From a virus, in IMG/VR virus record IMGVR_UViG_3300043313_001352, positions 1 to 64,000 of that record: a stretch of 64,000 bases of DNA, one strand, 5' to 3'. The notes beneath the pieces were generated by a model that made no database searches, was not told the origin of the DNA, and worked only from the letters and a program-made list of their open reading frames with translations. The position numbers were made by a program, and so were the translations under genes. Below are positions 28,876-49,697 of the stretch, piece after piece. Every line of letters starts with the position of its first letter. Position 1 is the stretch's first letter.

Positions 28876-28876
28876 C

Positions 28877-30917: not shown

Positions 30918-30920
30918 CTC

Positions 30921-31030: not shown

Positions 31031-31052
31031 CAGGTCCCCAACGTAGCCAGGG

Positions 31053-31174
31053 CACTGACGTTTACGCAAGGAGCGACACGCCGCGCGCTGGCGTTTTGGC
31101 AAACAGGTTGGTGATGACGGGACGGTGTGGTACGCTTTCCTTGAAAGCGAACGACAACGACGAAGGGACACCCG
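31053..31174 (+). promoter_or_regulatory. Module 6
   Basis: Box ends 31069; TACGCT at 31131; CGCTTTC-ctt-GAAAGCG. Confidence 0.8.
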
Positions 31175-31531: not shown

Positions 31532-31827
31532 GCGCCCCGCTGGCGAGCGCGTGCGAGCACCACGACGCCGCGGGAGAGTGCGACGAGGAGTGCCTCGCGC
31601 TGGTGCAGGCGATGAACACCGACTTCAGCGAGCCGATGATCTACGGCGACTATCTCGGCGGCACGTCCTCGATCGACTGGTCGGGCTGCCACGCGCCGGA
31701 GCCGCGCGTCGAGCGGATCGCCCGGCTCGACCCCGTCACCCGGCGGATCTACTGGGAGGAGGTGTGCCCCTACGAGGACGAGCACGACGCCACCGACTGC
31801 ACCGCCTGCTCGTATCTGGGGATGTGA
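31528..31827 (+). CDS. Cys-rich acidic hypothetical protein
   Basis: GTGA coupling. Confidence 0.6.
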   Translation: MSAPLASACEHHDAAGECDEECLALVQAMNTDFSEPMIYGDYLGGTSSIDWSGCHAPEPRVERIARLDPVTRRIYWEEVCPYEDEHDATDCTACSYLGM

Positions 31828-31873
31828 GCCCCCGCTCGTCCGGCCGCCCCAAGGAGGCGGCCGGGCGGGTCGG

Positions 31874-31996
31874 AACGTCACTGACGTTTACGCAGCCAGC
31901 TCGCCTGGCCGCCGGGGTACGACTCCCGCGTCGCGAGAGGTTCGACTGGACAGTGTGGTATGCTTTCCTTGAAAGCAAACGACGAAGGGACACACC
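31874..31996 (+). promoter_or_regulatory. Module 7
   Basis: Box ends 31895; TATGCT at 31959. Confidence 0.8.
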
Positions 31997-32458
31997 ATGA
32001 GGATCCACTCCGACTCGGTCGACACGCTCGACATCCGCAAGGCCGCGACGCTCGCCGCCGTGGACTTCACCCGCTTCGACCTCAAGGGCAGCCGCTCACG
32101 CGCGCAAGCCTTCGACGTCATCTTGACCGGTGACTCCGGGCGCCAGCAGAACGGCGGCGGCGATGAGGCGGCGTCCTGGGACCAGTGGGGGATCTTCCTG
32201 GGCCACCTGTTCCGGCTGGACCAGCACCTCAAGACGCCCTACTACGTCGACGGGGAGCACTTCGTCTGGGTCACCGGCAACCGGTTCACCCCCGACTTCA
32301 CCCCCGGTGACTGCCACCGCCGCCACCGGTGGGGGATGGGTCACCCCGCGATCACCGGGACCTACTCGGTCGCCGAGTGCGAAGAGGGCAAGGACCCGTG
32401 CGGCGCGGTTCAGCGCTGGATGCTGCACGGGCGCACGTTCGCCGACCTCAACCGCTAG
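31997..32458 (+). CDS. Conserved actinophage hypothetical protein
   Basis: GSRSRAQAFDV...AASWDQWGIFLGHLF. Confidence 0.75.
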   Translation: MRIHSDSVDTLDIRKAATLAAVDFTRFDLKGSRSRAQAFDVILTGDSGRQQNGGGDEAASWDQWGIFLGHLFRLDQHLKTPYYVDGEHFVWVTGNRFTPDFTPGDCHRRHRWGMGHPAITGTYSVAECEEGKDPCGAVQRWMLHGRTFADLNR

Positions 32459-32477
32459 CGGAGCGGCGGCACCGGTG

Positions 32478-32621
32478 CTAGTAGTACCGGTGCCGGGTGC
32501 CGCCGACGGGCACGAACCAGAGCACCAGGCCGACGATGATCAGGATCGCGCCGATGATCGTCAGCCAGTAGATGCCGAGCACCAGGCCGAGCACCAGAAG
32601 GATGAGCCCGAGGATGACCAT
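32478..32621 (-). CDS. DUF6131-like small membrane protein
   Basis: MVILGLILLVLG...IGAILIIVGLVLW..PVGGTRHRYY. Confidence 0.7.
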   Translation of the reverse strand: MVILGLILLVLGLVLGIYWLTIIGAILIIVGLVLWFVPVGGTRHRYY

Positions 32622-32637
32622 GGGCTCAGGGTACGCC

Positions 32638-32764
32638 CACTGACGTTTACGCAGCTTTCCCACTCTGGAGCGGCCCGCTGGTCTAGTCCCGATTCGCGTG
32701 TGTCCGGACACTGGTGTATTGTTCTTCTTGTAAGAACAACGACGCACCGACCGAAGGACACCCC
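32638..32764 (+). promoter_or_regulatory. Module 8
   Basis: Box ends 32654; TATTGT at 32717; TTGTTCTT-cttgt-AAGAACAA. Confidence 0.75.
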
Positions 32765-33205
32765 ATGATCACTGCCGAGTACCTCGCCCTTGTCGAGGGT
32801 GGCACCGACCACTTCACCGTGGAGTTCCACAGCGACACGAAGCCTGCGGCCAAGCACGCGAGCAAGCGGCTCCGCAAGGTCGTCACGGCGGTCGTCATGA
32901 CCGGCGCGTCGTACGCGAACCTCCGCGTCAACAAGGGCGTCGAGACCGGCCCGCTGCCGTGGGGTTCGTGGATGGACGGTGCCGAGCCGTTCGTGATCCA
33001 GCACAAGGGTCAGGACTACGCCCGCCTGTACTGCATCGAGCACGGCGTGCGGGCGATCTACACCGTGGACGGCGAGGTCGTCACGCGGGACGAGTACGAG
33101 TCCTACCTGACGCCCAGCCAGCGCTCCGCGCCCCGGCCCAACGGCGGCTGCATCACGGTCAAGATGAGCGGCGTGCGGCTCGTCGGCGAACCGGCGTTCG
33201 CATGA
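32765..33205 (+). CDS. Hypothetical phage protein
   Basis: LPWGSW...IQHKGQDYARLY. Confidence 0.7.
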   Translation: MITAEYLALVEGGTDHFTVEFHSDTKPAAKHASKRLRKVVTAVVMTGASYANLRVNKGVETGPLPWGSWMDGAEPFVIQHKGQDYARLYCIEHGVRAIYTVDGEVVTRDEYESYLTPSQRSAPRPNGGCITVKMSGVRLVGEPAFA

Positions 33206-33618
33206 CCACGGTCCGCGTCCGCGTCCGCGTTCGTTGTGGCACCTGCGCCGACTGCACAGCCGCCGCTGCCCCGGCCAAGGTGGCCAAGATCGAAGCCCGC
33301 CCGGCTCGTCCGGCTCGTCGGAACGCCTGCGTGTACTGCACCACGCCGGGGTGCGCCGGGGACTGCCCGCGCGCCGTGGCAGCCAAGCGCAAGGCCGAGG
33401 TGCCCTTCTCATGGACGTCGTGGGAGTGGCTGGTGCCGTGGCTGGACTGGTGGCTGACACGGCTGTCCGCCACCAAGCCCCGCACCGCCTCGGCGATCGT
33501 CTACATCGGCCTCGGTCTGGTGATCCTCGCGATCGTCGCCGCCGTGCTTGCCTACTTGGCAGCGATGCTCCTGATGGTCCCGTTCGTGATCATCGGCTTC
33601 CTCATCTTGGTCGACTGA
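33202..33618 (+). CDS. Cys-rich membrane protein
   Basis: ATGA coupling; C-terminal TM segments. Confidence 0.6.
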   Translation: MTTVRVRVRVRCGTCADCTAAAAPAKVAKIEARPARPARRNACVYCTTPGCAGDCPRAVAAKRKAEVPFSWTSWEWLVPWLDWWLTRLSATKPRTASAIVYIGLGLVILAIVAAVLAYLAAMLLMVPFVIIGFLILVD

Positions 33619-33676
33619 CCCACTGCCCGCCACGCGACCCGGCCCCGAAGAGGGGCCGGGAAGGAGGCCGCGAGCT

Positions 33677-33784
33677 ACTGACGTTTACGCAGGGCGGCGC
33701 CTGGGCCGCGGGCGCGCCTGGTTGGGGTCTGTCGGGACAGTGTGATATGCTTACGCAGTAAGCAAACGACGAAGGGACACCCCC
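33677..33784 (+). promoter_or_regulatory. Module 9
   Basis: Box ends 33692; TATGCT at 33746. Confidence 0.8.
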
Positions 33785-34315
33785 ATGGCACACACCGCCA
33801 CCCGCACCAACCGCTACGCCGCCGCCTGCGCCGACTGCCGCGGCTGGGTGCACGCCGACGCAGGCGTGCTCACCAAGTCCGCCGCTGGCAAGTGGGAGAC
33901 CCGGCACATGGGCGCGTGCCCCGCGCCCAAGGCACCGGCGAAGAACGCCGAGCCCGGCTACTACGTCCGCCCCGCCGACGGCCGCGCGGTCGTCGTGGTC
34001 GCGGGCAAGCGCCACCCCGAGCGCACCTACGGCAAGGTGCTCACCTTCCCGGCCGACGGCAGCCGCCCGTCGTGGGACTACGTGCGCGGCGCGGGCTACT
34101 CGGTCGCCGACCTGCGGCCGATGACCGCCGCCGACGCGGCCGAGATGGGCTTGAGCCATGGCTACTGCATCCGCTGCTGCGCACCGCTGGGCGGCGAGAC
34201 CCTGTCCGCCGCCGTGTCCGCGCTGGTCGGCTACGGCGAGACCTGCGCCAAGCGGATGGGGTGGGCCTACCCGAAGGGCGTCGCGGCCCAGCGCGCTCGC
34301 CTCGCGGAGGGCTGA
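33785..34315 (+). CDS. Zn-binding protein with DUF6011-like C-terminus
   Basis: NRYAAACADC; GYCIRCCAPL...SALVGYGETCA. Confidence 0.7.
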   Translation: MAHTATRTNRYAAACADCRGWVHADAGVLTKSAAGKWETRHMGACPAPKAPAKNAEPGYYVRPADGRAVVVVAGKRHPERTYGKVLTFPADGSRPSWDYVRGAGYSVADLRPMTAADAAEMGLSHGYCIRCCAPLGGETLSAAVSALVGYGETCAKRMGWAYPKGVAAQRARLAEG

Positions 34316-34360
34316 GCCCCGCGCACGAAGACCCCCGACCCGTGAGGGCCGGGGGTCTTC

Positions 34361-34425
34361 CCATGCCGTGCCATGCCCAACCAAGCCCCGCCTGACCGAG
34401 CCAGACCCCGCCATGCCTCGCCGCG
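34361..34425. repeat. Period-5 tract, 13 x CCNNR
   Basis: ccatg ccgtg ccatg cccaa ccaag ccccg cctga ccgag ccaga ccccg ccatg cctcg ccgcg. Confidence 0.8.
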
Positions 34426-34474
34426 TACTCGGCTCCAGGCTAGCGCCAGCTGAAGGCCAGCTGGGCCGCCGCGG

Positions 34475-34606
34475 AACGTCACTGACGTTTACGCAGGCGG
34501 CCAACCCTCCAGCTGGGCTTCAGCGTTGCGCACTGTTGCGATGGCGGGACGGTGTGGTATGCTTACTTCAGTAAGCGACACAGAGACACAACGAAGGGAC
34601 ACCCCC
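34475..34606 (+). promoter_or_regulatory. Module 10
   Basis: Box ends 34496; TATGCT at 34558. Confidence 0.8.
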
Positions 34607-35458
34607 ATGACCGCCAAGTCCGACGCCCGCGAGGCCCGCCTCGAAGCCATGCACGAGGTGCTGGTTGCCAAGACGGCCGAACTCGCCACGAGCGAGGGCT
34701 GGATGCAGTACTTGGAGTTCGCCTCCAAGTTCCGCCAGTACAGCCTCAACAACACGCTGCTGATCCTCTGCCAGCGCCCCGACGCGACGCACGTCGCCTC
34801 GTACAAGAAGTGGGGCGAGATGGGGCGTCAGGTCCGCAAGGGCGAGCGCTCCATGTCGATCTTCGCTCCGATGATGCGCAAGCGCGAGGACGAGAAGACC
34901 GGCGAGGAGAAGCGCTACATCTCCGGCTTCCGGCTGGTCCCGGTCTTCGACGTCGCGCAGACCGACGGCGACCCGATCCCCGAGCCCGTGCTCCCCGTGC
35001 TGCTCGACGGCGAGGCCCCCGAGGGTCTGTGGGATTCGCTGCTGACGATCGTGGACGCCTCCGGCTACCACGTCGAGCGCGGCGACTGCCACGGGGCGAA
35101 CGGGTTCACCCGCCCGAGCGAGCGGCTGATCATGGTCCGCGAGGACGTGAGCGACGCGCAGGCCGTCAAGACGCTGGTGCACGAGGTCGCGCACATGCTG
35201 CTGCACTGTGGCGAGGAGGGCGGGCTCACCGCCGATGCGATGCTGCACCGCTCAGTCGCTGAGGTCGAGGCCGAGTCGGTCGCGCACATCGTCGCCAACG
35301 TGCACGGGCTGCCGACCGAGACCTACTCGCTGCCCTACATCGCGGGCTGGTCCAACGGCAAGCCCGAGCAGGTCGCAGCGACTGCGGACCGCGTGCTCAA
35401 GACCGCGAAGCAGATCCTCGCGATCACCGAGCCCGCTGAGGAGGAGGTCGCGGCCTGA
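34607..35458 (+). CDS. ArdC-like protein (ssDNA-binding N-domain plus zincin-like domain)
   Basis: FRQYSLNNTLLI..QRPDATHVASYKKW..MGRQVRKGE...VFDVAQTDG; TLVHEVAH...EVEAESVA. Confidence 0.9.
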   Translation: MTAKSDAREARLEAMHEVLVAKTAELATSEGWMQYLEFASKFRQYSLNNTLLILCQRPDATHVASYKKWGEMGRQVRKGERSMSIFAPMMRKREDEKTGEEKRYISGFRLVPVFDVAQTDGDPIPEPVLPVLLDGEAPEGLWDSLLTIVDASGYHVERGDCHGANGFTRPSERLIMVREDVSDAQAVKTLVHEVAHMLLHCGEEGGLTADAMLHRSVAEVEAESVAHIVANVHGLPTETYSLPYIAGWSNGKPEQVAATADRVLKTAKQILAITEPAEEEVAA

Positions 35459-35465
35459 GCGTGAG

Positions 35466-35493
35466 AGCCCGCCCCGAGAGGGGCGGGCTTTCT
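35466..35493 (+). terminator. Intrinsic terminator-like hairpin
   Basis: AGCCCGCCCC-gaga-GGGGCGGGCT followed by TTCT, right after stop. Confidence 0.65.
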
Positions 35494-35506
35494 CGCGCCA
35501 GAACAG

Positions 35507-35617
35507 CACTGACGTTTACGCAGCTCGGCTCTCCTTCAGGGGCCTGGGGCGGTGCGAGGTGCCGCGACAGTGTGGTATGCTTACATCTGTAAGCAGGAAA
35601 CGACGAAAGGACACCCT
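35507..35617 (+). promoter_or_regulatory. Module 11
   Basis: Box ends 35523; TATGCT at 35576. Confidence 0.8.
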
Positions 35618-36004
35618 GTGGACATCAACTTCAGCGTCGGTGACGTGGTCGCCTACGAGCCCTTCGGTGGCGGCGAGCGCATCGTGGTGGTCACCGACCG
35701 CGAGGTGCACAACGGGCAGGACGCTTTCGACGCCGACCTGATCGGCGCCGACGAGCCCTTCAAGGTCTGGGGCTACGCCGACCAGATCACCCGCAACCTC
35801 GGACCGGCCCGCATCGCGGTGGTCGAGGGGCAGGCCGACAAGGTCGCCACGATCGCCCGGTACCTGCCCAGCAACTACGCCGCGAGCGTCGACGGCGAGA
35901 ACGTGCGGATCTTCGGATTCGACTCGCGCGGGTGGACGCTGGACGACTACGTGATCCCGCGTCTCGCGAGCGGCATGTGGCGCGCCACTGAGGTGACGGC
36001 ATGA
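35618..36004 (+). CDS. Hypothetical actinophage protein
   Basis: YLPSNY...GFDSRGWTLDDYVIPRLASG. Confidence 0.7.
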   Translation: MDINFSVGDVVAYEPFGGGERIVVVTDREVHNGQDAFDADLIGADEPFKVWGYADQITRNLGPARIAVVEGQADKVATIARYLPSNYAASVDGENVRIFGFDSRGWTLDDYVIPRLASGMWRATEVTA

Positions 36005-36204
36005 GCACCGCCACCGTGAGCAAGGCCGCGACAATCATCGCGGGCGCTGACGCGGCGTATGGCCGCGAGGATCAGGCATGGTTCGACGCGCTCCCCACCG
36101 AGTCGCTCACGCTGCTGTGGGGCGTGGCAGTCGCCACCCTCGCCGGGGCGTCATGGGATGACGAGGTGTTCGACGCGCTCGCGTCTCGCGGATGGTTCGA
36201 CTGA
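36001..36204 (+). CDS. Small hypothetical protein
   Basis: Coupled. Confidence 0.6.
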   Translation: MSTATVSKAATIIAGADAAYGREDQAWFDALPTESLTLLWGVAVATLAGASWDDEVFDALASRGWFD

Positions 36205-36500
36205 TGGCCGTGCGACTGATCAGTCAGAGCGAAGCCAAGCGCGCCACGGCGTCCGGCCACTGGTTGGGTTCGGAGATCTTCTACACCGAGGACGAGGACT
36301 TCTACACCGTCCGGTTCCACGCGCGCACCTACGACGGCATCAAGGTCGCGTCCTCCTACACGACCGGGGAGATCCGCCTCACCGGGCAGGGCGGCTTCCT
36401 CAAGTCCGAGGTCGAACGGCTCTTCCACCAGTTCGCCAGCCTCTACATCACCGAGCCCGATCTTGACGCGGTGCGCGAGTCGCGCAAGGACGAGGGCTGA
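36204..36500 (+). CDS. Hypothetical protein
   Basis: TGATG coupling. Confidence 0.6.
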   Translation: MAVRLISQSEAKRATASGHWLGSEIFYTEDEDFYTVRFHARTYDGIKVASSYTTGEIRLTGQGGFLKSEVERLFHQFASLYITEPDLDAVRESRKDEG

Positions 36501-36705
36501 TGGGGCAGAAGTGGTGGCCCACCTCGCCCGGCATCCCGGCGGCAGGACACGTCACCGCCAGCGGGTTCTGGCATCCCGGTGGGGGTCACAACTGCGATCG
36601 CTGCAAGGGCTAGGGTGCGCCGCATGGATCCCCTGATCGCCTACCTCAAGCGTCGCGCCGCCCAGTTCATCACTGGGCGGCGTGTTCGTTTCGCCAGCGC
36701 GAACC

Positions 36706-36842
36706 CACTGACGTTTACGCCGAGCTGCCCCAGGTGCCTGGCCGCGCATCCCTCGAACTCACAGCGTCTGCCGAGGTGATGTGATAAACTGACGGAGTCA
36801 GAGAGACCAAACGACACAACGACGCACGACGAAAGAGACCAC
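36706..36842 (+). promoter_or_regulatory. Module 12
   Basis: CACTGACGTTTACGCCG ends 36722; TAAACT at 36785. Confidence 0.75.
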
Positions 36843-37583
36843 ATGAAGCGCATCACCCTTGCCCTGTTCGCAGGCATCCTGGCCCTGAGTGGGCTGACTG
36901 TCGTCGCAGGCGCTGCCTCGGCCGACACCGCACCGATCCCCGACCCGGTGGGTGGCTCGGTCCGGCTCACCGTGGACGACGTCCGCTACGGGGCCGACGG
37001 CGGCTGCCGCAACGCCCCGGTCCGCATCTCGGTGCAGACTCCGGACGACTACGCCTACATGGAGTACGACTTCGAGTCGACCTATGACGGCCCGACCAGC
37101 CTCGCGGACTGGGTGTCCAGCAGCGGCGAGGGGTTCTCCGGTGTCTTCACCGACTCGTTCGTCGTCTGCCCCGAGTACGACAGCCCCGGCACCTACTACG
37201 GCAGGCTGAACGTCAAGTTCTACGACTACGAGTACAACGTGATCGCCGAGACCGACGCCAGCGATGTCTTCCACGTGCTGCCCCGGCTGCACACCTCCAG
37301 CATCGCGGCCTCGCGTGCCACCTACGGCGCCCACGGCTGGGCGCTCAAGGCAACCGCTCGCTACGACGGGCACGCCTGGCGCAACAAGACCGTGAAGCTT
37401 CAGCGCTACGCCGGGCACAACTCGTGGACCACGCTGCGCAACGTCCGGACCAACCGCTACGGCAAGGCGACGCTGGGCTTCACCCCGGCCAACCGCACCC
37501 TGCGCGGCTACCGAGTCCTGCTGCCCGCCAGCAACGGCGCCCCGAACCACGTGTCCAGCACGCACTGGCTGCGTCGCCGCTGA
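36843..37583 (+). CDS. Secreted protein
   Basis: MKR...AASA signal peptide; acidic N-domain, basic Ig-like C-domain. Confidence 0.75.
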   Translation: MKRITLALFAGILALSGLTVVAGAASADTAPIPDPVGGSVRLTVDDVRYGADGGCRNAPVRISVQTPDDYAYMEYDFESTYDGPTSLADWVSSSGEGFSGVFTDSFVVCPEYDSPGTYYGRLNVKFYDYEYNVIAETDASDVFHVLPRLHTSSIAASRATYGAHGWALKATARYDGHAWRNKTVKLQRYAGHNSWTTLRNVRTNRYGKATLGFTPANRTLRGYRVLLPASNGAPNHVSSTHWLRRR

Positions 37584-37651
37584 TCGACCCGCATCAACTC
37601 AAGGACCCCCGGCGCCACTGGCGTCGGGGGTTCGTGCGTTCGAGGGGCGAG

Positions 37652-37768
37652 ACGTCACTGACGTTTACGCAGCTCGCCTGCACGGCCGCACCAGGCTGGG
37701 CTTGAGAACTGACGCGACGGTGTGGTATTCTTACGTCAGTAAGAACAACGACGAAGGGACACACCGAC
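37652..37768 (+). promoter_or_regulatory. Module 13
   Basis: Box ends 37672; TATTCT at 37726. Confidence 0.8.
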
Positions 37769-38089
37769 ATGAGTTTCTCCATCCCGCGCCCCGACTGGGT
37801 GACCGACCAGTCGATCGGCCGCCGCGGCGAGTACGCCCAGTTCCAGATGTTCACGCGTGAGGCCAACGACGCCGTAGCCACCATGGTGCTGGCGATCCTG
37901 AGCGACGCGGTGCGTCTGGGTCCGCCGCGCACCGTGGTGATCGAGGCGATCCAGCAGGGCGTCCGCAACCTCACCCGGCGCTTCCCCGAGATCCACGACA
38001 CCGAGCCCGAGTGGGCGATCACCGACGCGGTGAACCACTACCTCGACATGCGTGAACTGCCCAAGACGAGCCGCGAGGAGTTGTTCTGA
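37769..38089 (+). CDS. Hypothetical protein
   Basis: Leader upstream. Confidence 0.7.
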   Translation: MSFSIPRPDWVTDQSIGRRGEYAQFQMFTREANDAVATMVLAILSDAVRLGPPRTVVIEAIQQGVRNLTRRFPEIHDTEPEWAITDAVNHYLDMRELPKTSREELF

Positions 38090-38454
38090 TGAGCGAGCCC
38101 GAGATCCACATCGACGTCGACCCGATGCTGTACCTGGCCGCGTTCATCGAGGACAACCTCGACACGATCGACCACCTCAAGAGCGCGGGCGACATGATGG
38201 GTGCGCCGGAGTTCGCCGGTGCTGTGGCGTCGGTGGGCCACGACGCGATCGCACACGCCCACGAGCAACTGGAGTCGCTGATCGCTGCGGACAAGACCTG
38301 GCAGCCCTGCTACGGGACGTGGTGCGTCATGGTCTACGAGGACACCGATCCCGAGATGGGCGACATCAACCGCTGCACGGTGCACAACTACCTGGTGCTC
38401 GGGGACATCTACGTCTGCGAGGGCTACCAAGCCCCGCCGTACGTCGGGCCATGA
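38089..38454 (+). CDS. Hypothetical protein
   Basis: TGATG coupling. Confidence 0.65.
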   Translation: MSEPEIHIDVDPMLYLAAFIEDNLDTIDHLKSAGDMMGAPEFAGAVASVGHDAIAHAHEQLESLIAADKTWQPCYGTWCVMVYEDTDPEMGDINRCTVHNYLVLGDIYVCEGYQAPPYVGP

Positions 38455-38738
38455 GCCGCACCAACGTCTACCGGGACGGCAAGGTGCACGTGATGGAGGC
38501 CAAGTGCTCCACGTGCATCTACCGGCCCGGCAACCTGATGCACCTCGAACCAGGTCGCAAGGACGCGATGCAGGCCGACGCGATCGCTGACGAGGGTGTG
38601 ATCCCGTGCCACAAGACGATCCACGGTGCGCGCGAGCAGGAGAGCGTCTGCCGGGGGTTCTTCGATGTCGCCAAGCACGAGGGGCTGCTGGCCGTGGCCG
38701 AGCGGATGGACATCATCGAGTTCACGCCCACCGCGTGA
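38451..38738 (+). CDS. Cys-rich actinophage protein
   Basis: CSTCIYRPGNLMHL...CHKT...CRGFFD. Confidence 0.7.
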   Translation: MSRTNVYRDGKVHVMEAKCSTCIYRPGNLMHLEPGRKDAMQADAIADEGVIPCHKTIHGAREQESVCRGFFDVAKHEGLLAVAERMDIIEFTPTA

Positions 38739-38777
38739 GCCGCACGCCGACAGAGTTCTGTCGGTGCTGCGTGGTGG

Positions 38778-38913
38778 ACTGACGTTTATGCAGAGCTGGC
38801 CCGAGGTCCCCCCGCCACCACCTCCCGATCCCATGGCTGGATTGGGCAATCCAGATTCCCCATGTTACGATTACGAGGTAATCGAACATGACCCAGAGAC
38901 GAAGGACGAAGCG
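38778..38913 (+). promoter_or_regulatory. Module 14
   Basis: ACTGACGTTTATGCAG ends 38793; TACGAT at 38866; CGATTAC-gag-GTAATCG. Confidence 0.75.
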
Positions 38914-39279
38914 ATGACCAGCACGATGGAGAAGCCCGCCAAGGGCAAGAAGGGCAAGGGCGCCAAGACGCCGACCACCAAGGACAGCCGCATCGCGGAC
39001 GTCACTGCGGTGCTCGCCAGCGTCGATGCAGGTGAGGCGCTGCGCGACCGGATCAAGGCCATGCAGGCCGAACTCAAGATCCACGAGGACAACGTCAAGG
39101 ACGCGCTGGGCGAGGCCACCACCGGCGTCGATGCCAAGGGCAAGGTCGTGGTGCGCTACCCGTTCCGCAACCGCTCGGGTCTGTCGAAGGAGAAGGTCAA
39201 GGACCGGCTCTCCCCGACCGACTACGCCGAGTGCGAGACGGTCACCGAGTACCGCACCCTGCTCTACGGCGAGGGCTGA
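38914..39279 (+). CDS. Coiled-coil phage protein resembling the C-terminal part of YqaJ-type exonucleases
   Basis: IKAMQAELK...VKDALGEAT.G...GKVVVRY...Y.EC...TEYRTL. Confidence 0.55.
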   Translation: MTSTMEKPAKGKKGKGAKTPTTKDSRIADVTAVLASVDAGEALRDRIKAMQAELKIHEDNVKDALGEATTGVDAKGKVVVRYPFRNRSGLSKEKVKDRLSPTDYAECETVTEYRTLLYGEG

Positions 39280-39284
39280 GCGCC

Positions 39285-39647
39285 ATGTGGATGAACGAGC
39301 ACGAGGTCGAGGAGACCTTCGACCGCCTCGACAGCGCCCACCCGGCAGTGCCGAACCTCGCGGCCGGAGCATCCGTGCTGGACGCGCTGGTCGCCTGGAC
39401 CAACGCCAACTCCGACGGCTGGCCCTACTGGCAGAAGCCGTCCAAGGCTGCCAACAGCCTGATGACGGTGCTGCACAACCGGGACTACGCGATCCGGTTC
39501 GGCCACGACCGTGAGGGCAAGCCGCTGGAGGACATCACCACGGCTGAGCTGGCCCTGGTGCTGCGCCCGATCAAGGCGTTCCTGACCCGGCAGGAGATCG
39601 ACTGGAACGCCGACCTGCCGTGGGCGGCGCTGTTCCCGGCTGCTTGA
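39285..39647 (+). CDS. Conserved actinophage hypothetical protein
   Basis: WTNANSDGWPYWQKPSKAA...LRPIKAFLTR. Confidence 0.7.
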   Translation: MWMNEHEVEETFDRLDSAHPAVPNLAAGASVLDALVAWTNANSDGWPYWQKPSKAANSLMTVLHNRDYAIRFGHDREGKPLEDITTAELALVLRPIKAFLTRQEIDWNADLPWAALFPAA

Positions 39648-39744
39648 GCCTGTCGAGAGGATGGACCTAGCCCGGCTTCCGCTGCAGTCCCCCCACTGCC
39701 GGAAGCCGGGTCTAGGCTGTCCCCAAGCGACGAAGGGACGAACG

Positions 39745-39948
39745 ATGTACGTGCACCGGGACAAGCGAGGCGGGGTCACCCTGACCCCCGACGAGGCAGA
39801 GATCACCGACCTGTTCTTGCTGTTCGTCCTCGAAGGCGAGGACATTCCGGAGGCCGCGCAGTACGCCCTCTCGGCGACTCCGAACCCGGACCCCAAGTTC
39901 GCTGCCTGGCTGCGCCAGGGGATGCTCAGCCACGAGCGAGCTGACTGA
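39745..39948 (+). CDS. Small hypothetical protein
   Basis: GACGAAGGGAC leader; stop overlaps next box. Confidence 0.6.
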   Translation: MYVHRDKRGGVTLTPDEAEITDLFLLFVLEGEDIPEAAQYALSATPNPDPKFAAWLRQGMLSHERAD

Positions 39949-40040
39949 CGTTTACGCAGCCCAGGCGCACCGCACGAAGCGCAGGCTGTCCACGTCCTGT
40001 GGTAAACTGTCCTTAGACAGAACGACGAAAGGACACCCGC
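39944..40040 (+). promoter_or_regulatory. Module 15
   Basis: Box ends 39959; TAAACT at 40003. Confidence 0.8.
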
Positions 40041-40226
40041 ATGGACCCGAACGAGACGCTGCAGATCATCCGCAACACCATCGCGCAGATGCGTGTGGAC
40101 GAGCACCCGGCCATCCGCAAGCAGCACGCTGACGACCTGGCCGAGCACTTCGAGGCGCTCGATGAGTGGCTGTCCAACGAGGGCTTCCTGCCCGGCGCGT
40201 GGGCGATCCCCGGCGAGCGTGGCTGA
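40041..40226 (+). CDS. Small conserved actinophage protein
   Basis: MDPNETL...ALDEWLSNEGFLPGAW. Confidence 0.75.
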   Translation: MDPNETLQIIRNTIAQMRVDEHPAIRKQHADDLAEHFEALDEWLSNEGFLPGAWAIPGERG

Positions 40227-40375
40227 TGGACCCGTACTGCGAGGACTGTGGGCTCAGCCTGCACGCGCAGGCCGAGAAGGCGATCGCCTCCGGTGAGTGG
40301 CAGATGGTCTGGGCCGACGCCGACGGCTCCTGGATCTGCCCGCAGACCGGCAACGAGCACCGGCCGCAGAACTAG
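40226..40375 (+). CDS. Small Zn-binding protein
   Basis: CEDCG...C...EH. Confidence 0.5.
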   Translation: MDPYCEDCGLSLHAQAEKAIASGEWQMVWADADGSWICPQTGNEHRPQN

Positions 40376-40620
40376 GCCGAGGCGCTGCTCTGCATCTTGT
40401 TCAGGCGCTCCTGCAGTTCAGCGATCTGCGACTGGATGTGCTCGGCATCCACGCGACCGCGAGGCTTCGGCTCGACACCCTCCAGCGCAGCCTGCTGGCT
40501 GTAGAGCGTGTCGAACTCGCCCTGGTGCTGGTTGATGAGCAGCTGCGTGGCGCGGTAGCGCGCCCGGTTCGCCGCACGCACCTGGGCCTTGTGCTTGTCG
40601 GGATCTGATCGAGTGACCAT
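40372..40620 (-). CDS. Small basic/coiled-coil protein
   Basis: AAGGAAG RBS; RARYRATQLLINQHQGEFDTLY. Confidence 0.65.
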   Translation of the reverse strand: MVTRSDPDKHKAQVRAANRARYRATQLLINQHQGEFDTLYSQQAALEGVEPKPRGRVDAEHIQSQIAELQERLNKMQSSASA

Positions 40621-40793
40621 GAGAGTTCTTCCTTCGGGTTGTCTTCCGTCGCTGGGCCAGTTGCTAGACCCCAGACAACCGGCTGTGCCGAATACGACCA
40701 GGGTCTAGGGTCGTGATCCTTGTGCGGATCCTGTTCGGTACTGCTGAGTGTACCGCAGTCCACGTCTCGTTCCGCCAAACAGGCCCAGAAGCT

Positions 40794-40875
40794 ACTGACG
40801 TTTATGCAGACAGGGCTGTACCCGCAACCACGCGGGGCAATCATGCGGGCTGTGGCAGGCTCAGCGTGCTGAGCC
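40794..40875 (+). promoter_or_regulatory. Module 16 (non-consensus -10)
   Basis: Box ends 40809; TGTGG-CAGGCT with GGCTCAGC-gt-GCTGAGCC. Confidence 0.6.
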
Positions 40876-41024
40876 GGGACACACCTACTGAGCAGGGCAA
40901 ACGCCGCACGACGTTGTGTCGGTGGGGTGCCCTAGGGTCAGGACCGTTAGCCAACCTCAGTGCTGACCACACATCTAGACCAGCAGCAGACCACCCGCCC
41001 CGCGATTATGGGGTGACGCAATCC

Positions 41025-41078
41025 TGTGGTAGGCTCTGGGTACAGAGCCAGACAGTGAACGACGAAAGGACGCATGAC
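41025..41078 (+). promoter_or_regulatory. Promoter and leader of AAA gene
   Basis: TGTGG-TAGGCT, GGCTCTG-ggta-CAGAGCC, AACGACGAAAGGAC. Confidence 0.75.
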
Positions 41079-42416
41079 GTGAGTACCAAGAGCACCGCCG
41101 TGATGATGCAACTCGCCACGGCCGATGGGGATTCCAAGCAGCAGATGGTGGTCTTCGCCAACAAGGCGGTCTACCGCCGCAGCCTGACCGAGGGCACCCG
41201 CACCCGCTGGCGCTACGCCAGCGTGGGCGACCTGCCGACGTGGGTCGAGGGCTACGTGAACCTCACGCAGGCCGCGCCCACCCCGATGAGCATCAGCCAC
41301 GGCGCCACCCTGATGGAGGTCACCGAGGACGAGGCAACCGAGGCCGAGGGCGGCGCGTTCCCGAGGAACGTGGGGCTGCGCTACTCCCGCGTGATCGACG
41401 CGATGGACGCGGACCCGACCAGCAACGTCCCGACACCGGACGTGAAGCAGTACGTGCAGGACTGGCTGGACGCGCAGGGCCGCGACGACAACGCGTGGAT
41501 CGACACGCACGTGCACTCCGCAGGCACGTGCGTGATCAAGCCCGCCGCACCTGAGCCTGAGCCGGAGGAAGAGCCGGAGGTCACCGTGGCCACCACGACG
41601 GGCGGCTGGACCTACCCCGAGACCAAGGGCGGCTACATCACCCGCCCGAACGGGACCAAGTACAAGGTCCGCACGCTGGACGGCACGCCCGACGTGCAGG
41701 TGATCCGCGAGGCTCGCCCCGACCGCGAGCACGTGTTCCTCTACGGCGAGCCGGGGACCGGCAAGACGGCACTGGTCGACTCCGCATTCGGCACCGATCT
41801 GGTGACCATGCTGGGCACCGAGGACACCGAGGTCGCGGACTTCATCGGCGGCTACACCGTGCGCGGTGGCGGCTCCTACGGCTGGACGGACGGCGCGCTC
41901 ACCGAAGCCATGGAGCGCAAGGTCCCGCTGTTCATCGACGAGATTGGGGTGATCGCTCCCAAGGTGCTCACCACCGTGTTCTCGGTGATGGACGGCCGCG
42001 ACGAGATTCGGATCACCGCGAACCCCGACCGGGGCATCGTGACCGCTGGGCACGGCTTCTTCGTGCTGGCAGCCACGAACCCGCACGCTCCCGGCGTGCG
42101 GCTCTCCGAGGCGCTGCTCTCCCGGTTCGCGATCCACCTTGAGGTCGGCAGCGACTACTCCGTGTGCCGCGAGATGGGGGTGCCGGACGTGCTGGTCACC
42201 GCCGCCGAGAACTTGGACAAGCGCCGCGCCACCGGCGAGATTGGCTGGGCACCGCAGATGCGTGAACTGCTCCGCGCCAAGGCGCAGTGGACCAAGCGCG
42301 GCGACGCGTTCGCGATCCGCAACCTGATCAGCGGCGCACCCGAGGACGACCGCGAGGTCGTGGCCGAGGTCATGGCCCGCACCACCGGGAAGAAGTTGAC
42401 CGGGCTGGTCCTCTGA
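41079..42416 (+). CDS. MoxR-type AAA+ ATPase (CbbQ/NirQ/NorQ-like)
   Basis: GEPGTGKT, LFIDEIG, AATNP, LSEALLSRF, MRELL; GTG start after leader. Confidence 0.9.
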   Translation: MSTKSTAVMMQLATADGDSKQQMVVFANKAVYRRSLTEGTRTRWRYASVGDLPTWVEGYVNLTQAAPTPMSISHGATLMEVTEDEATEAEGGAFPRNVGLRYSRVIDAMDADPTSNVPTPDVKQYVQDWLDAQGRDDNAWIDTHVHSAGTCVIKPAAPEPEPEEEPEVTVATTTGGWTYPETKGGYITRPNGTKYKVRTLDGTPDVQVIREARPDREHVFLYGEPGTGKTALVDSAFGTDLVTMLGTEDTEVADFIGGYTVRGGGSYGWTDGALTEAMERKVPLFIDEIGVIAPKVLTTVFSVMDGRDEIRITANPDRGIVTAGHGFFVLAATNPHAPGVRLSEALLSRFAIHLEVGSDYSVCREMGVPDVLVTAAENLDKRRATGEIGWAPQMRELLRAKAQWTKRGDAFAIRNLISGAPEDDREVVAEVMARTTGKKLTGLVL

Positions 42417-42530
42417 GACTTCCGCCCCGCGTCGTTGCAGGCGCGGGGCGGGGGACCGTTCACAGTGAACGGCTCTGTAGTCGCTGGCGTCAGCTCGCAG
42501 TCGAGCTGGCGCCAGCGCAGCCAGGAACCG

Positions 42531-42687
42531 CACTGACGTTTACGCAGCCAGGCGCGCTGGACACGGCGCAGGCGTGGACAGGGCGAGGGTGCACCAGTTT
42601 GGTAATGACTGGCTCATGGTGTAAACTGAGGTTACGAGGTCAGGGTGACTCCCGGCCACACAGACAGAACGACGAAAGGACAGGGCC
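42531..42687 (+). promoter_or_regulatory. Module 17
   Basis: Box ends 42547; TAAACT at 42622. Confidence 0.75.
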
Positions 42688-44523
42688 ATGGGCCACATCT
42701 TGTACGGCAAGGTCGAGAGCACTGTGAACAAGAGCGACGACGACTGGTACGGCGTCGCGGCGCAGGTCGGCAAGTTCACGAACAAGCGTGCGCACCGCAC
42801 CGATATCACCGCAGTCGTGTCCAGCACTGCTGGCATGGGCGCTCCCGCGTGCTTCATCCCCTCGCTCGCTGAGATGCACATCAACACCGAGGCCGCTCCC
42901 ATGGGTCCTCCCGACAAGGTCAATCTGGACGACCGCATGTGGATGCTCACCTACGCCCCGAGCGTGGGCGCGTGCACCCACGAAGCGGCACACGCCCGCC
43001 ACACGCACTGGGACCCCCGCGACCTGATGGAGAACTACGAGGCCACCCGCAAGATGGTCGACGTGATCACCACGCTGGAAGAGCCGCGCATCGAGGCACA
43101 GGCGCTGCGCTTCCACCCTGACTCGCGTCCCTTCCTGCGGGGCTGCGCGATGGAGATTGTCGGGCGCGACTTCGTGATCCCCGACTCCCGGTACGGCGCT
43201 GCCGCTGCTGCTGGTCTGCTGCTGGCGCGGGTCGATGCCAAGGTGCTCACGCGCCGCGAGGCGTCGACGTTCCGCCGCGATATCGCTGCGGTGCTGGGCG
43301 AGACGCTGGACGTGTTGGAGCCGCTGTGGCAGCGCTTCCTGATGCTGCACGACCACGACTACGCGGGCATGGTGGAGATTGCCGCCGCGTGGCTGGACGC
43401 GCTGGGCGAGGACCCCGAGGACGCCTCCGAGATGGTGGGCGAGTCGATGATGGGCGAGCCGCTTCCCGGCGACCCCGGCGAGGATGACGGCTCTGGCAAG
43501 GGCGAGGGCGGCGAGGGTGAGGGCGACGAGTCCAAGGGTGAGGCGTCCGGCTTCGGCGACAAGATCATGGGCAAGGTGCACATCACCGAGTCCAAGATGG
43601 ACAAGGAGGTCACCGAGGCTCGCGGCGAAGAGCGCGCCGAGCGTGCTCGCGCCGAGCGCCGCACCGACGCCGAGCGCCGCAAGGCTGCCGAGGGTCCGCA
43701 CGCCGAGGCGTTCGCGCACACCGGGCTGCACGGCTACACGCCGGACGGGTTCGCGCACTACGCGGGGTCACGCCCGCCGAGCGCCGACGAGCGCCGTGCG
43801 GCCAAGTCGCTGGCCCGGTCCTTGGAGAAGATCGACTACCGCGACCGTGCGGTGACCAAGGTCCGCAGCGTGGTGCCTCCCGGCCGTCTGGTCGGGCGGG
43901 CTGCGGTGCAGGCCGACGCGATGACCGAGCAGGGCCGGGACGCCTCCGGTGTCGAGGTCTGGTCCGGCAAGCGCCGCAAGCGCGTCGAGTCCACGCCGCT
44001 GACGATCGGGTTCCTCGGGGATATCTCGGGGTCGATGAACGCAGCCATGGAGCCGCTGGCATCGAGCCAGTGGGTCGTGAGCACCGCAGGCGCGCACGTG
44101 GATGCCAAGGTCGCCAGCGTGCACTTCGGTGATCAGGTGCACGGCATCACGCCCGCTGGCGTGCGGGAGAAGGACGTGCGCCTGTTCGCGCCGTACGACG
44201 GCAGCGAGGCGTTCAAGGACGCAGCGCTGGCGATCGACAAGGAACTGAACCTGCTGGACGGGCGGGGTGCTCGCATCCTGTTCATCGCCAGCGACGGGCA
44301 GTACGTGAACGGCACCGATATGGCCTACGCCGCGAAGTGGATTCCGTTGGCCAAGCGCAAGGGTGTTGCGGTGATCTACCTCAACTTCCTCGGGTCGATG
44401 AACCCGACCGGCGTGGCCGGGTCCAAGGTGATCGACTGCGTCCGCAAGTCTCCCGCCGAGGTCGCCGCGCTGTGCGGGAAGATCGCGATCGCGGAGGTCC
44501 GCAAGATCGACCAGCGGGTCTAG
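42688..44523 (+). CDS. VWA-domain protein with N-terminal HExxH domain (CobT/NorD-like partner)
   Basis: HEAAH...LEEPRIE; acidic linker; MIDAS DISGSM and SDG. Confidence 0.88.
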   Translation: MGHILYGKVESTVNKSDDDWYGVAAQVGKFTNKRAHRTDITAVVSSTAGMGAPACFIPSLAEMHINTEAAPMGPPDKVNLDDRMWMLTYAPSVGACTHEAAHARHTHWDPRDLMENYEATRKMVDVITTLEEPRIEAQALRFHPDSRPFLRGCAMEIVGRDFVIPDSRYGAAAAAGLLLARVDAKVLTRREASTFRRDIAAVLGETLDVLEPLWQRFLMLHDHDYAGMVEIAAAWLDALGEDPEDASEMVGESMMGEPLPGDPGEDDGSGKGEGGEGEGDESKGEASGFGDKIMGKVHITESKMDKEVTEARGEERAERARAERRTDAERRKAAEGPHAEAFAHTGLHGYTPDGFAHYAGSRPPSADERRAAKSLARSLEKIDYRDRAVTKVRSVVPPGRLVGRAAVQADAMTEQGRDASGVEVWSGKRRKRVESTPLTIGFLGDISGSMNAAMEPLASSQWVVSTAGAHVDAKVASVHFGDQVHGITPAGVREKDVRLFAPYDGSEAFKDAALAIDKELNLLDGRGARILFIASDGQYVNGTDMAYAAKWIPLAKRKGVAVIYLNFLGSMNPTGVAGSKVIDCVRKSPAEVAALCGKIAIAEVRKIDQRV

Positions 44524-44537: not shown

Positions 44538-44613
44538 GGGGTCCGGCTCACCGACTCGTCATCGGGCTGCGTGAGGTCGTTACGTCCTTTCGTCCCTCAC
44601 CGAGCCGGACCCC
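44538..44613 (+). ncRNA. Candidate RNA with loop antisense to the shared leader
   Basis: 12-bp closing stem; GTGAGG/CCTCAC stem with loop containing GTCCTTTCGTC. Confidence 0.5.
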
Positions 44614-44654
44614 ACCTAGCACGACAACGACACAACGACAGAACGGAGCACGGC

Positions 44655-44849
44655 ATGTTGAACACAACGATCAAGGACTGGCAGGTGGTCTGCGGGCTGC
44701 GTTGCCGGTGGGGCTTCCGAGCCGCTGACGGCACGGAGGTCTGGCGGCAGCGCGGCATCGCGCTGGCAGTGCTGCGCAAGGACACCACCGTGTTCCTGCT
44801 GCGGGTGCCCTACACGCTGCGCACCTACCCAGGGGTGGTGTGGTCATGA
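44655..44849 (+). CDS. Small hypothetical protein
   Basis: ACAACGAC leader repeats, GGAG RBS. Confidence 0.5.
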   Translation: MLNTTIKDWQVVCGLRCRWGFRAADGTEVWRQRGIALAVLRKDTTVFLLRVPYTLRTYPGVVWS

Positions 44850-45187
44850 GCACCCCTGACTTCCGCAACGAGGACCCGGTCTGGGTCCGGTACGCCGAGA
44901 TGACCAGCGGCGGGCACGACAAGTTCTACGAGCTGACCATCCACCTGCACGACGACGGCCTCTTCTACGTCCAGAAGCGGTGGGGCCGACGCCCCGACGC
45001 GGGCGGCGGGCAGATCAAGGTCGAGTACTACGCGAGCCTGGACTCCGCGCAGGGCATCGCGATCGGCATGCTCCGCGAGAAGTTGGCCAAGGGCTACCGC
45101 GAGGTCGAGCGCCCCTTCGGCGCCGGGCAGCGAGTCCGCCGTGAGCACGGGCCGGACTTCTACGCCGAGGGCACCGAGGCGTTCTAG
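44846..45187 (+). CDS. WGR-domain protein
   Basis: DKFYEL...VQKRWGR...GQ...EKLAKGYRE. Confidence 0.85.
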   Translation: MSTPDFRNEDPVWVRYAEMTSGGHDKFYELTIHLHDDGLFYVQKRWGRRPDAGGGQIKVEYYASLDSAQGIAIGMLREKLAKGYREVERPFGAGQRVRREHGPDFYAEGTEAF

Positions 45188-45235
45188 CCGCATCAACCGG
45201 CCGCCGCCTGGCGGCCGGTTTCGGCAGTGACGTCT

Positions 45236-45346
45236 ACTGACGTTTACGCAGCCTGGCGGCTACCTGGTGGGCTGGCCTGGTTTGCCTGCTGATCTAGATG
45301 GTGTAGACTGTTCTCAACAGCCCAACGACGACAAGGACACACTGAC
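45236..45346 (+). promoter_or_regulatory. Module 18
   Basis: Box ends 45251; TAGACT at 45304; CTGTT-ctc-AACAG. Confidence 0.8.
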
Positions 45347-45709
45347 ATGGCTACTGCTTACAGCCCGCCCGAGGGTTTCGAGCCCCCGCAGATCACGCTG
45401 GAGAACATGCGTGATGGCTCCTACGAGCGCGAGGAGGCTGCCTTCCTCGAACGGCTCGCCGACCGCGCCAAGATGAACGGCACCAGCCCGCTGCTGGGCG
45501 AGGTGGTCCGCTGGTCGCGTGCCGACGGCTACGCGCAGTACATGGTCTGGAACACCAAGCCGCTGCAACTGATCCACCTCAACCTCATCGACGGCTACTC
45601 GATCGAGCCCGCGCTGATCCGGGGCCTCCGGGTCGCCGACATCCGCGACATGGTCGAGAGCGCTGCCCGGCTGCGCGCGCTGTTCAGCCGGAAGCGGGAC
45701 GAGTCATGA
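45347..45709 (+). CDS. Conserved phage hypothetical protein
   Basis: GEVVRWSRADGYAQYMV...LIHL...DGY. Confidence 0.75.
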   Translation: MATAYSPPEGFEPPQITLENMRDGSYEREEAAFLERLADRAKMNGTSPLLGEVVRWSRADGYAQYMVWNTKPLQLIHLNLIDGYSIEPALIRGLRVADIRDMVESAARLRALFSRKRDES

Positions 45710-47405: not shown

Positions 47406-47446
47406 ACTGTTCCTAGGAACAGACCAACGACGAAGGACGAACTGAC
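47398..47446 (+). promoter_or_regulatory. Promoter and leader
   Basis: TGTGC-TAAACT, CTGTTCCTAGGAACAG, AACGACGAAGGAC. Confidence 0.75.
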
Positions 47447-47932
47447 ATGACTGATCTCCCCACCGGCTACCGCTGGGCCACCGCCGAAGAGACCGAGGCG
47501 CACGCCGTCACGGAGAACCCGATGATGGTCGTGGTGCCCCGCACCGTGGACTCCTCGGGTACGCCGTACACCGAGGGCGAGGCTGACCTCGCGCTGCCCA
47601 TCGACCTGCCCCGTGACGAGGACGGTTTCATCGAGACCTCCGCCGTGCACGGCGAGATGTGGATGGTGCACATCCAGTGGACCGAGGACCACGACGGCCG
47701 CGTGATCGACCCGGAGCACGAGGAGTACCCGGAGACCTTCCACGGACCGTTCTTCAGCCAGCAGGAGGCTGCTGACTGGTCCAACGCCTACCCGGAGTTC
47801 ACCGAGATCCACGACATGTACGTCAAGAACCTCAACCTGGTACGGCCCACCGGGCTGCCGACGATCACCGCGAAGACCGTGGCGTACGCCGACGGCATGT
47901 CCGCCGCCCGTGCCGACCTGGGGCTCCGATGA
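47447..47932 (+). CDS. Acidic hypothetical protein
   Basis: Leader upstream. Confidence 0.7.
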   Translation: MTDLPTGYRWATAEETEAHAVTENPMMVVVPRTVDSSGTPYTEGEADLALPIDLPRDEDGFIETSAVHGEMWMVHIQWTEDHDGRVIDPEHEEYPETFHGPFFSQQEAADWSNAYPEFTEIHDMYVKNLNLVRPTGLPTITAKTVAYADGMSAARADLGLR

Positions 47933-48779: not shown

Positions 48780-48827
48780 TGTGGTACTCTGTTACCACGC
48801 AACGACGCAACGACAAGGAGAACTGAC
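48780..48827 (+). promoter_or_regulatory. Promoter and leader
   Basis: TGTGG-TACTCT, CAACGACGCAACGACAAGGAG. Confidence 0.65.
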
Positions 48828-49697
48828 ATGGCACGTGTGACCCACGTCCGCAAGGCGCAGCAGCGCTACGAGACCGTCCCCGTCATCGACGAGGCCACCG
48901 GGGAGCCCAAGCGCACCCAGGTGATGAAGAACGGCGAGCCCAAGATGACCCGCGCGAAGGCCGGTCGCCCCGCCCGCCCGGTCTTCATGACCGTCACGGT
49001 GCAGGACAAGACCAAGCCGCTGCCGCCGTACACCTGCGACTCGTGCCACCAGCCCATCGAGGTCGGCACGCCGTACAAGCACATCACCCCGAAGAGCGGT
49101 CCGTACGGCGGGCACAAGCGCACTCGGCACGAGTCCTGCCCGACCTGGCAGGTCTGGGAGTACAGCAACTCCTGGAGCGCTCGGATCGCCCAGGCCACGC
49201 ACGACTTCGACGTCAGCAACGCCGAGTCCACCGATGACGTTCAGAGCGCTCTCGACGACGTGGCGGCTGCCATCAAGGAGCTGGCCGAGGAGTCCCGTGA
49301 GACCGCTGGCAACATCGAGGACGGCTTCGGTCACCCGACGTCGCAGTCGGAGGAGGCCGAGCAGCGTGCCGACGACCTGGACGGCTGGGCCGACGAGATC
49401 AGCGGTGCCGACATCCCGGACCTCCCGGAGCCCGAGCCGCGGTGGTTCGTCACCAACGGCGACGGTGTCGCCTCGGACCTGTTCGAGGAGGACGGCTACG
49501 ACTCGGAGATGGACGCCGAGCAGGCGCTCGCCTCTCACCGTGACGACAACGACGAGGAGCCTGGCGAGGACGGCGAGTTCGACGACGGGTTCGAGATCGA
49601 GGAGATCACCCCGGACGAGCCCACCGAGGAGCAGCTGAACGACTGGCGTGACGAAGTCCTGGACGCTTGCTCGATCGTCGACGAGAGCCCCGTCTGA
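48828..49697 (+). CDS. Phage protein with basic Zn-ribbon N-half and very acidic C-half
   Basis: CDSCHQPIEVGTPY...RHESC; D/E-rich C-terminus. Confidence 0.75.
   Translation: MARVTHVRKAQQRYETVPVIDEATGEPKRTQVMKNGEPKMTRAKAGRPARPVFMTVTVQDKTKPLPPYTCDSCHQPIEVGTPYKHITPKSGPYGGHKRTRHESCPTWQVWEYSNSWSARIAQATHDFDVSNAESTDDVQSALDDVAAAIKELAEESRETAGNIEDGFGHPTSQSEEAEQRADDLDGWADEISGADIPDLPEPEPRWFVTNGDGVASDLFEEDGYDSEMDAEQALASHRDDNDEEPGEDGEFDDGFEIEEITPDEPTEEQLNDWRDEVLDACSIVDESPV

Follow-up and report, generated by a model that had tools for sequence, protein, structure and literature searches.

We conclude, from sequence, predicted folding, and comparison with relatives, that nucleotides 44538-44613 of the DNA analyzed here (the window, the first 64 kb of a 114,034-bp IMG/VR virus record; GC ~68%) very probably specify a conserved, single-copy, plus-strand structured RNA, which carries in its apical loop the complement of a leader (the anti-leader) that the same phage places before 14 of its genes. 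The function we favor, about which we are evenly poised between belief and doubt, is antisense action of this loop on the Shine-Dalgarno (SD) leader, with feedback on its own operon as the conserved core. The features on which the argument rests are collected in Table 1. A near-identical search of a phage collection with the window gave no match, and thus no close relative among deposited phages.

Table 1. Coordinates of the element, its operon, the leader copies, and the comparable hairpins of two Cluster K phages
Feature	Position	Strand	Remarks
Structured RNA element	44538-44613	+	76 nt, predicted three-way junction, one copy per genome; RNA fold and covariance model
Closing stem	GGGGTCCGGCTC 44538-44549 / GAGCCGGACCCC 44602-44613	+	perfect 12 bp
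Hairpin 1	CCGA/TCGG 44551-44554/44562-44565	+	loop CTCGTCA; RNA fold
Hairpin 2	GTGAGG/CCTCAC 44571-44576/44595-44600	+	18-nt loop 44577-44594
Anti-leader GTCCTTTCGTC	44584-44594	+	3' end of hairpin-2 loop; reverse complement of leader GACGAAAGGAC
Spacer after element	44614-44654	+	C/A-rich, ACGAC repeats, weak SD ACGGAG of next gene
AAA_5/MoxR ATPase gene	41079-42416	+	upstream of vWA gene
vWA promoter and 5' UTR	42618-42687	+	-10 TAAACT 42622-42627; exact leader 42671-42681
vWA-type gene, 611 aa	42688-44523	+	stop codon 44521-44523, 14 nt 5' of element
Downstream cistrons	64-aa gene 44655-44849; WGR-domain gene 44846-45187	+	ORF list
Terminator-like hairpin, 11 bp	45195-45220	+	fold; closes vWA unit; box and next promoter after it
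Leader copies (14)	26261, 26707, 27292, 28536, 29411, 31159, 31981, 33768, 35602, 37750, 39729, 40024, 41061, 42671	+	motif starts
Anaya anti-SAS hairpin	JF704106 59849-59901 (L131 44850-44902)		
Adephagia anti-SAS hairpin	JF704105 58662-58714 (L150 2163-2215)		gene 92-93 gap

The leader family and the element in its operon

The motif GACGWARGGAC is found 14 times on the plus strand of the window, between 26261 and 42671, and once on the minus strand, at the anti-leader. Shuffled sequence is expected to hold 0.18 matches and never reached 15, and the remaining 50 kb of the 114-kb record (64-114 kb) contains no more copies. Each plus-strand copy lies 5 to 8 nt 5' of an ATG or GTG start codon. 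An earlier note on this DNA had sorted the leaders into three classes by their fit to the loop, and the classes and their start codons are as it described: the exact leader stands before four genes (35618, 40041, 41079, and 42688), a second form, GACGAAGGGAC, before five (31175, 31997, 33785, 37769, and 39745), with one G.U pair to the loop, and a third, GACGTAAGGAC, before another five (26277, 26723, 27309, 28552, and 29427), with one U.U mismatch.

Most of the leader copies have an extended -10 sequence (TGnTANNNT) and an inverted repeat just 5'. Within the region 26200-42690, the last three to four bases of the -10 hexamer are also the 5' arm of the inverted repeat (for example at 26232-26257, 40000-40020, and 41030-41055), and the predicted transcription start of the leader units would lie within the repeat; its arms vary by unit yet stay complementary (GCTTAC/GTAAGC, GCTTTCC/GGAAAGC, GGCTCTG/CAGAGCC, and others). 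Units 3' of the element carry variant leaders before the genes at 45347, 47447, and 48828. At 45323-45349, 47426-47449, and 48806-48830 we see a second leader class, which reads ...ACGAC(G)AAGGA(C/G), then (R)AACTGAC before ATG; an antisense copy of this class (RAACTGACATG) was looked for in the window, and none was found.

All parts of the fold proposed in the earlier note are present, both in the sequence and in the predicted RNA fold, at the coordinates it gave. The fold z-score of the element on the plus strand is modest (-2.4), so the case for a real RNA rests on conservation and covariation in relatives. The anti-leader has a mean unpaired probability of 0.63 in the window element, and in two relatives, L019 and L031, an alternative fold is predicted that buries CCUUUC, with an unpaired probability of 0.2 to 0.3. 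No Rfam covariance model matched over 44538-44613, even with E values up to 10.

The element lies directly 3' of the vWA-type gene, whose homologues carry the Pfam domain PF05762 (VWA); phage homologues of the protein, from Microbacterium and Gordonia phages, are ~35% identical and are annotated as AAA-ATPase or as cobalamin biosynthesis protein. Two cistrons follow, and after the WGR-domain gene comes a sigma-70-like gene; among relatives, the gene 3' of the element is either WGR-like or a small gene. Between the stop codon of the vWA gene and the start at 44655, no promoter-like sequence was found. A terminator scan gave nothing at the element, where the stem is followed by ACCTAGCACGAC and no U-tract. 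With the unit ending at 45195-45220, we exclude the element as an intrinsic terminator. Since the two downstream cistrons have no promoter of their own and are closed by the terminator-like hairpin, the element is intercistronic rather than a terminal 3' UTR, and the 3'-UTR origin suggested in the earlier note has to be given up. The element would thus be a segment of a plus-strand vWA-operon transcript running from a promoter at ~42620 through the vWA gene, the element, the 64-aa gene, and the WGR gene to the hairpin at 45195.

Several other features of these transcripts were observed. A box, ACTGACGTTTACGCAGCC, recurs at 42531-42550 and 45226-45244, in each case after the hairpin that ends a unit and before the promoter that follows. 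In four relatives an additional GC-rich hairpin, also without a U-tract, stands between the vWA stop and the element (L026 1129-1154, L032 538-563, L022 1251-1272, and L017 4048-4071), which argues against the element as a mere gene-closing hairpin. A soil metatranscriptome run, X24, yielded one 287-nt contig that matches 42644-42930 exactly, covering the vWA 5' UTR and gene start; it was the only contig, with none over the element, and contigs cannot show absence. This contig starts ~10 to 17 nt after the predicted -10 sequence. We take it as weak evidence of transcription of the vWA unit, DNA carry-over being possible.

Conservation and covariation in relatives

Relatives were collected by a search with the vWA protein, which gave a graded homologue series, and then by a profile-guided scan of metagenome contigs; the loci obtained are 45 to 91% identical. 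One relative, G001, is a 177-kb IMG/VR phage whose vWA protein is 91% identical to that of the window. Its element has an identical hairpin-2 loop and a compensatory A-U to G-C change in hairpin 1 (CCGA/TCGG to CCGG/CCGG), the spacer 3' of the element is far more diverged than the element itself, and the genome has eight forward leader copies and one reverse copy. Covariance model R1 gave one match in G000 and one in G001. The element was also found 3' of the vWA stop in L018, L019, L021/L031, L026/L030/L032, and L020/L022, and L023/L025 have a one-hairpin form that lacks hairpin 1. Its position is constant throughout: one per genome, just 3' of the vWA stop. R1 found nothing in 89 distant loci, where vWA identity is 36% or less, and an exact-pattern scan of IMG/VR with the loop and a hairpin-2 arm returned G001 only. 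Two looser scans gave candidates that we rejected. A promoter-leader pattern hit three other contigs in single copies, judged chance or too fragmentary, and a loose loop pattern hit ten IMG/VR loci in unrelated low-GC phages, none with a model match, which is the chance level for a 17-mer.

Covariation in related phages, which the earlier note had named as a check, is evident. All three helices are 100% paired in nine lineage sequences despite their sequence differences; the closing stem occurs in at least six different sequences, hairpin 1 in five, and hairpin 2 in five, all fully paired, and hairpin-1 stems range from 4 to 10 bp. When arms were exchanged between lineages, pairing was 59% for the closing stem and 66% for hairpin 2. 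MAFFT by itself placed the outer stem wrongly, and hairpin 2 was all that RNAalifold recovered, so we used a model-fitted alignment together with explicit helices for each lineage. In the R1-fitted alignment, which leans toward the model and in which part of the outer stem is still misplaced, 85.8% of cells pair; column shuffling gives 70.6% (0 of 500) and slid partners 39 to 51%, and both sides change in 13 of 22 pairs. Read on the minus strand, six G.U pairs (in L031, L030, L023, and L025) would turn into A.C, which identifies the plus strand, the sense strand of the genes, as the functional one. Element length ranges from 75 to 87 nt, and as the differences are not multiples of three, the element is noncoding.

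The hairpin-2 loop, TCGTTA(0-2 nt)GTCCTTTCGTC, shows no substitutions in seven window-type lineages (vWA proteins 61 to 91% identical to that of the window), only the indel of 0 to 2 nt. Judged from these sequences it is the most conserved part of the element, and the conservation of the loop, on which the earlier note had made its proposal depend, is thus borne out. The hairpin-1 loop keeps U(C/A)GUC in every lineage that has hairpin 1, and UCGUY is common to this loop and to the 5' half of the hairpin-2 loop.

A small hairpin is also predicted in the vWA 5' UTR (42641-42655), with an invariant loop, UGACU (GGTGACTCC at 42644-42652), on a covarying stem; it is seen as well at L019 2700-2720 and L020 3785-3805. 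Lineages with hairpin 1 in the element all have this 5'-UTR hairpin, and L023/L025, whose element lacks hairpin 1, do not. Its loop and that of hairpin 1 share four to five complementary bases in some lineages and three in others. Kissing of the two loops may provide a second contact point between element and leader region, and we keep it as a lead only.

Loop-leader pairing and its possible consequences

The actinobacterial 16S rRNA 3' end is CCUCCUUUCU. The center of the hairpin-2 loop, UCCUUUC, is the heptamer of this tail that reads GAAAGGA (compare the 16S alignments cited in PMC3203893 and PMC7302621). The bases that flank it in the loop (G on the 5' side and GUC on the 3' side, four positions) match the leader, not 16S rRNA. 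The best reading of the sequence is therefore that the loop is an extended anti-SD, which would raise the pairing from ~7 to 11 pairs for the phage's own leader. Predicted duplex energies for the loop with the 14 window leaders range from -14 to -26 kcal/mol. Thermodynamic specificity of the loop for the leaders appears modest, however: a genome-wide duplex scan with the whole 18-nt loop found several non-leader sites at -20 to -24 kcal/mol, and since the leaders rank high but not exclusively, we do not use the scan as proof of specificity.

In relatives the complementarity proposed from the window is kept, including in two lineages in which both partners have changed. The loop of L023/L025 is UCCCGUCCCUU(C), that is, GUCCCUU(C); of 12 leaders in this lineage, 10 end in ...GAAGGGAC (...AAGGGAC), its exact complement. 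The L020/L022 loop is UGACCAGUCCUCU; that of L020 forms eight contiguous pairs with an unusual vWA leader and spacer, AAAGGACUGGACA, at -15.2 kcal/mol, and is predicted to bind the AAA-ATPase leader at -12.1 and the remaining six of eight leaders weakly, at -7.5 to -8.9. A matrix of loops against leaders showed that each variant loop pairs most strongly with its own vWA leader (L020, -15.2 versus -9.0 to -11.5; L023, -18.1 versus -9.3 to -11.9). Wherever both the loop and the vWA leader are known, the two are complementary: the window phage with L009 (WIN/L009), L019, L020, and L023/L025. This test of loop-leader co-variation covers five lineages and rests on two lineage events only.

We propose that the closing stem and the two hairpins keep the 18-nt loop open, and that pairing of the loop with a leader (11 bp) would compete with the 30S subunit (~7 bp for the ribosome) and so lower translation initiation. 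Because the vWA leader is the target kept in every lineage, the core role would most likely be feedback on the MoxR-vWA module, which could act either in cis, by 3'-to-5' pairing inside a single mRNA, or in trans. In the window phage, where 14 genes carry this leader, the RNA could reach all of them. Pairing in the cell and the repression that would follow are what we infer from the structure, conservation, strand, complementarity, and co-variation of the element. Leader pairing accounts neither for UCGUUA, the conserved 5' half of the loop, nor for the loop of hairpin 1.

The earlier note had gone further and proposed regulon-wide shut-off, with the pairing as the explanation for leader conservation. 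The first proposal is partly supported in the window phage, where the leaders are uniform and the loop is predicted to pair with all 14; it does not hold as a conserved property of the family, since six of eight L020 leaders pair weakly and the L020 loop pairs well only with the vWA leader. The second proposal fails. Leaders are conserved in L020, where the loop fits the vWA leader well and the AAA-ATPase leader more weakly, and the AACGAC part of the leader is conserved in L023/L025 though the loop there does not reach it; the RNA does not account for leader conservation.

A stronger form of the shut-off idea, which we consider unlikely, is that a dedicated, stable, trans-acting sRNA is processed from the vWA transcript to bring about timed shut-off of every gene in the leader regulon, with only an incidental match to the vWA leader. 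The reach of the loop over all 14 window leaders would fit, as would pairing with all tested L023/L025 leaders (-10 to -19 kcal/mol), a closing stem that would shield a processed fragment, and the variant leaders carried by the genes 3' of the element. The Adephagia hairpin (Table 1; see below) lies in the gap between genes 92 and 93, where late transcription is reported to start (PMC11373665), and this too would fit a timed switch. The behavior of L020 speaks against it, however, as do the intercistronic position of the element and the lack of a promoter-like site or U-tail there, and since pairing persists with the variant leader at 47426 (-18.2 kcal/mol), the escape of later leaders is not clear.

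Next in rank, and improbable in our view, is a purely structural cis element (a processing site, a barrier to 3' exonucleases, or a partial terminator) whose loop complementarity has no pairing function. A GC-rich 12-bp stem directly 3' of a stop codon is what such an element would look like, stacking of the closing stem on hairpin 2 makes a ~18-bp helix that could suit RNase III, and other units of the region also end in hairpins. Yet a barrier or cleavage site needs no invariant 17- to 19-nt loop amid drifting stems, and on this reading one would not expect the L020 and L023 loops to follow the leader as they do; the four relatives with a separate GC-rich hairpin between vWA stop and element, the missing U-tract, and the empty terminator scan likewise count against it.

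Antisense action on the leader, the reading we prefer, also has to be set against mimicry of the 16S 3' tail, in which UCCUUUC would be a decoy for a protein or nuclease that recognizes the anti-SD (a host toxin or a phage factor, for example) with no mRNA pairing. The loop center is identical to the 16S tail heptamer, and the corresponding loop of phage Anaya has CCUCCU, but the flanking bases follow the leader complement rather than 16S rRNA, and the L023/L025 loop, GUCCCUU, departs from 16S and fits the leaders of its own lineage; we regard mimicry as highly unlikely. Scarcely credible is the reading of the anti-leader as a leader left over on the minus strand, or as a double-stranded DNA site whose protein also binds the leaders: a reverse copy on DNA is the same site, and minus-strand genes of some relatives have the similar leader GACGGAAGGAC, but in no lineage does a start codon follow the minus-strand copy within 5 to 10 nt or a -10 sequence precede it, the place of the motif in a loop on covarying stems indicates a single-stranded form, and the G.U pairs, which become A.C on the other strand, fit the plus strand only, so the remnant that the earlier note had itself raised as an objection can be set aside. 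Relatives with leftward genes under a similar leader, GACGGAAGGAC or GACAGAAGGAC, are L019 (706), L017 (155), L020 (1973), and L027 (578), all on the minus strand, and they indicate that the leader family is not strictly one-stranded in the clade.

Relation to known systems

The closest tested mechanism to the one proposed is that of the icaR mRNA of Staphylococcus aureus, in which an anti-SD motif in the 3' UTR pairs with the SD in the 5' UTR of the same molecule (PMC3868564). In both cases a C/U-rich anti-SD lies 3' of a stop codon and complements the SD of its own mRNA, with reduced initiation as the expected outcome. The window motif differs in being held in a dedicated three-way-junction scaffold, in lying between cistrons and not in a terminal 3' UTR, and in matching 13 further leaders; the window case is known from sequence and predicted pairing. 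There is a likeness as well to trans-acting sRNAs that occlude ribosome-binding sites (RBS), including those derived from 3' UTRs, which present a seed in an exposed loop complementary to the RBS of several mRNAs. The element has such an accessible seed for several targets; it differs in showing no promoter-like site or terminator U-tail of its own, and in that its seed would target a common leader made by the phage rather than diverse natural RBS regions.

The leaders themselves resemble the start-associated sequences (SAS) catalogued in actinophages since 2011 (PMC3203893), which occur together with an extended SAS (ESAS) in Cluster K mycobacteriophages (Pope et al. 2011, PMC3203893) and Cluster EF Microbacterium phages (PMC7302621). 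SAS and the window leaders are alike in having a short asymmetric motif with an SD core, conserved beyond what pairing with 16S rRNA needs, 3 to 9 nt before starts, in 10 to 19 copies of one orientation among non-structural genes, and with a promoter and inverted repeat before many copies. The window shows all of these: a motif with an SD core, one orientation with a single reverse copy, a non-structural region, and an upstream promoter and repeat. The differences lie in the motif sequence and the phage lineage, and in the inverted repeats, which covary in the window phage without a shared consensus. GACGWARGGAC fits neither the Cluster K consensus (GGGATAGGAGCCC) nor that of Cluster EF (GGGAAAGGACCCC), with GAAAGGAC alone in common with EF. 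The role of SAS was still called ill-defined in 2024-2025 (PMC11373665, PMC12699233), and no antisense RNA partner is described in PMC3203893, PMC7302621, PMC11373665, or PMC12699233. A covarying RNA that displays the exact complement of an SAS-type leader offers a concrete, mutable partner for these unexplained sequences.

Four K1 phages each have one reverse SAS that is unlinked to a gene start (Pope et al. 2011, PMC3203893). In Anaya it lies in the 385-bp gap between gp96 and gp97, where it forms the loop of GCGCGG-CCUCCUAUCC-CCGCGC within an 11-bp outer stem (z = -4.0), and this region is conserved in 138 Cluster K genomes. Among nine representatives the K1 structure is 91.9% paired, versus 33 to 51% with slid partners; the changes are mostly one-sided and to G.U, with one double change only. 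The Adephagia hairpin is in the gene 92-93 gap, in which late transcription appears to initiate (PMC11373665). The K1 hairpin (CCUCCUAUCC) is preceded by an intrinsic terminator and by TAGACT, a -10-like site, and some Cluster K records annotate a hypothetical protein over it.

The Cluster K hairpin is an independent parallel with the same layout as in the window phage, and it counts in favor of the antisense reading. We suggest, as a tentative generalization that we doubt more than we trust, that SAS-bearing actinophages as a rule encode a single structured RNA, with a loop that forms an extended anti-SD against the SAS of the phage itself and is able to out-compete the 16S tail, thereby timing or balancing the expression of non-structural genes; in Cluster K this RNA would be part of the late-transcript leader, and the onset of late transcription would thereby shut off early translation, and in the window phage family it would be embedded in the MoxR-vWA operon. 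If true, this would be a compact way for a phage to tag its own messages with a private ribosome-site mark and to control them all with one RNA, and the same layout in Cluster K phages, which are culturable and genetically tractable, makes the idea testable at the bench.
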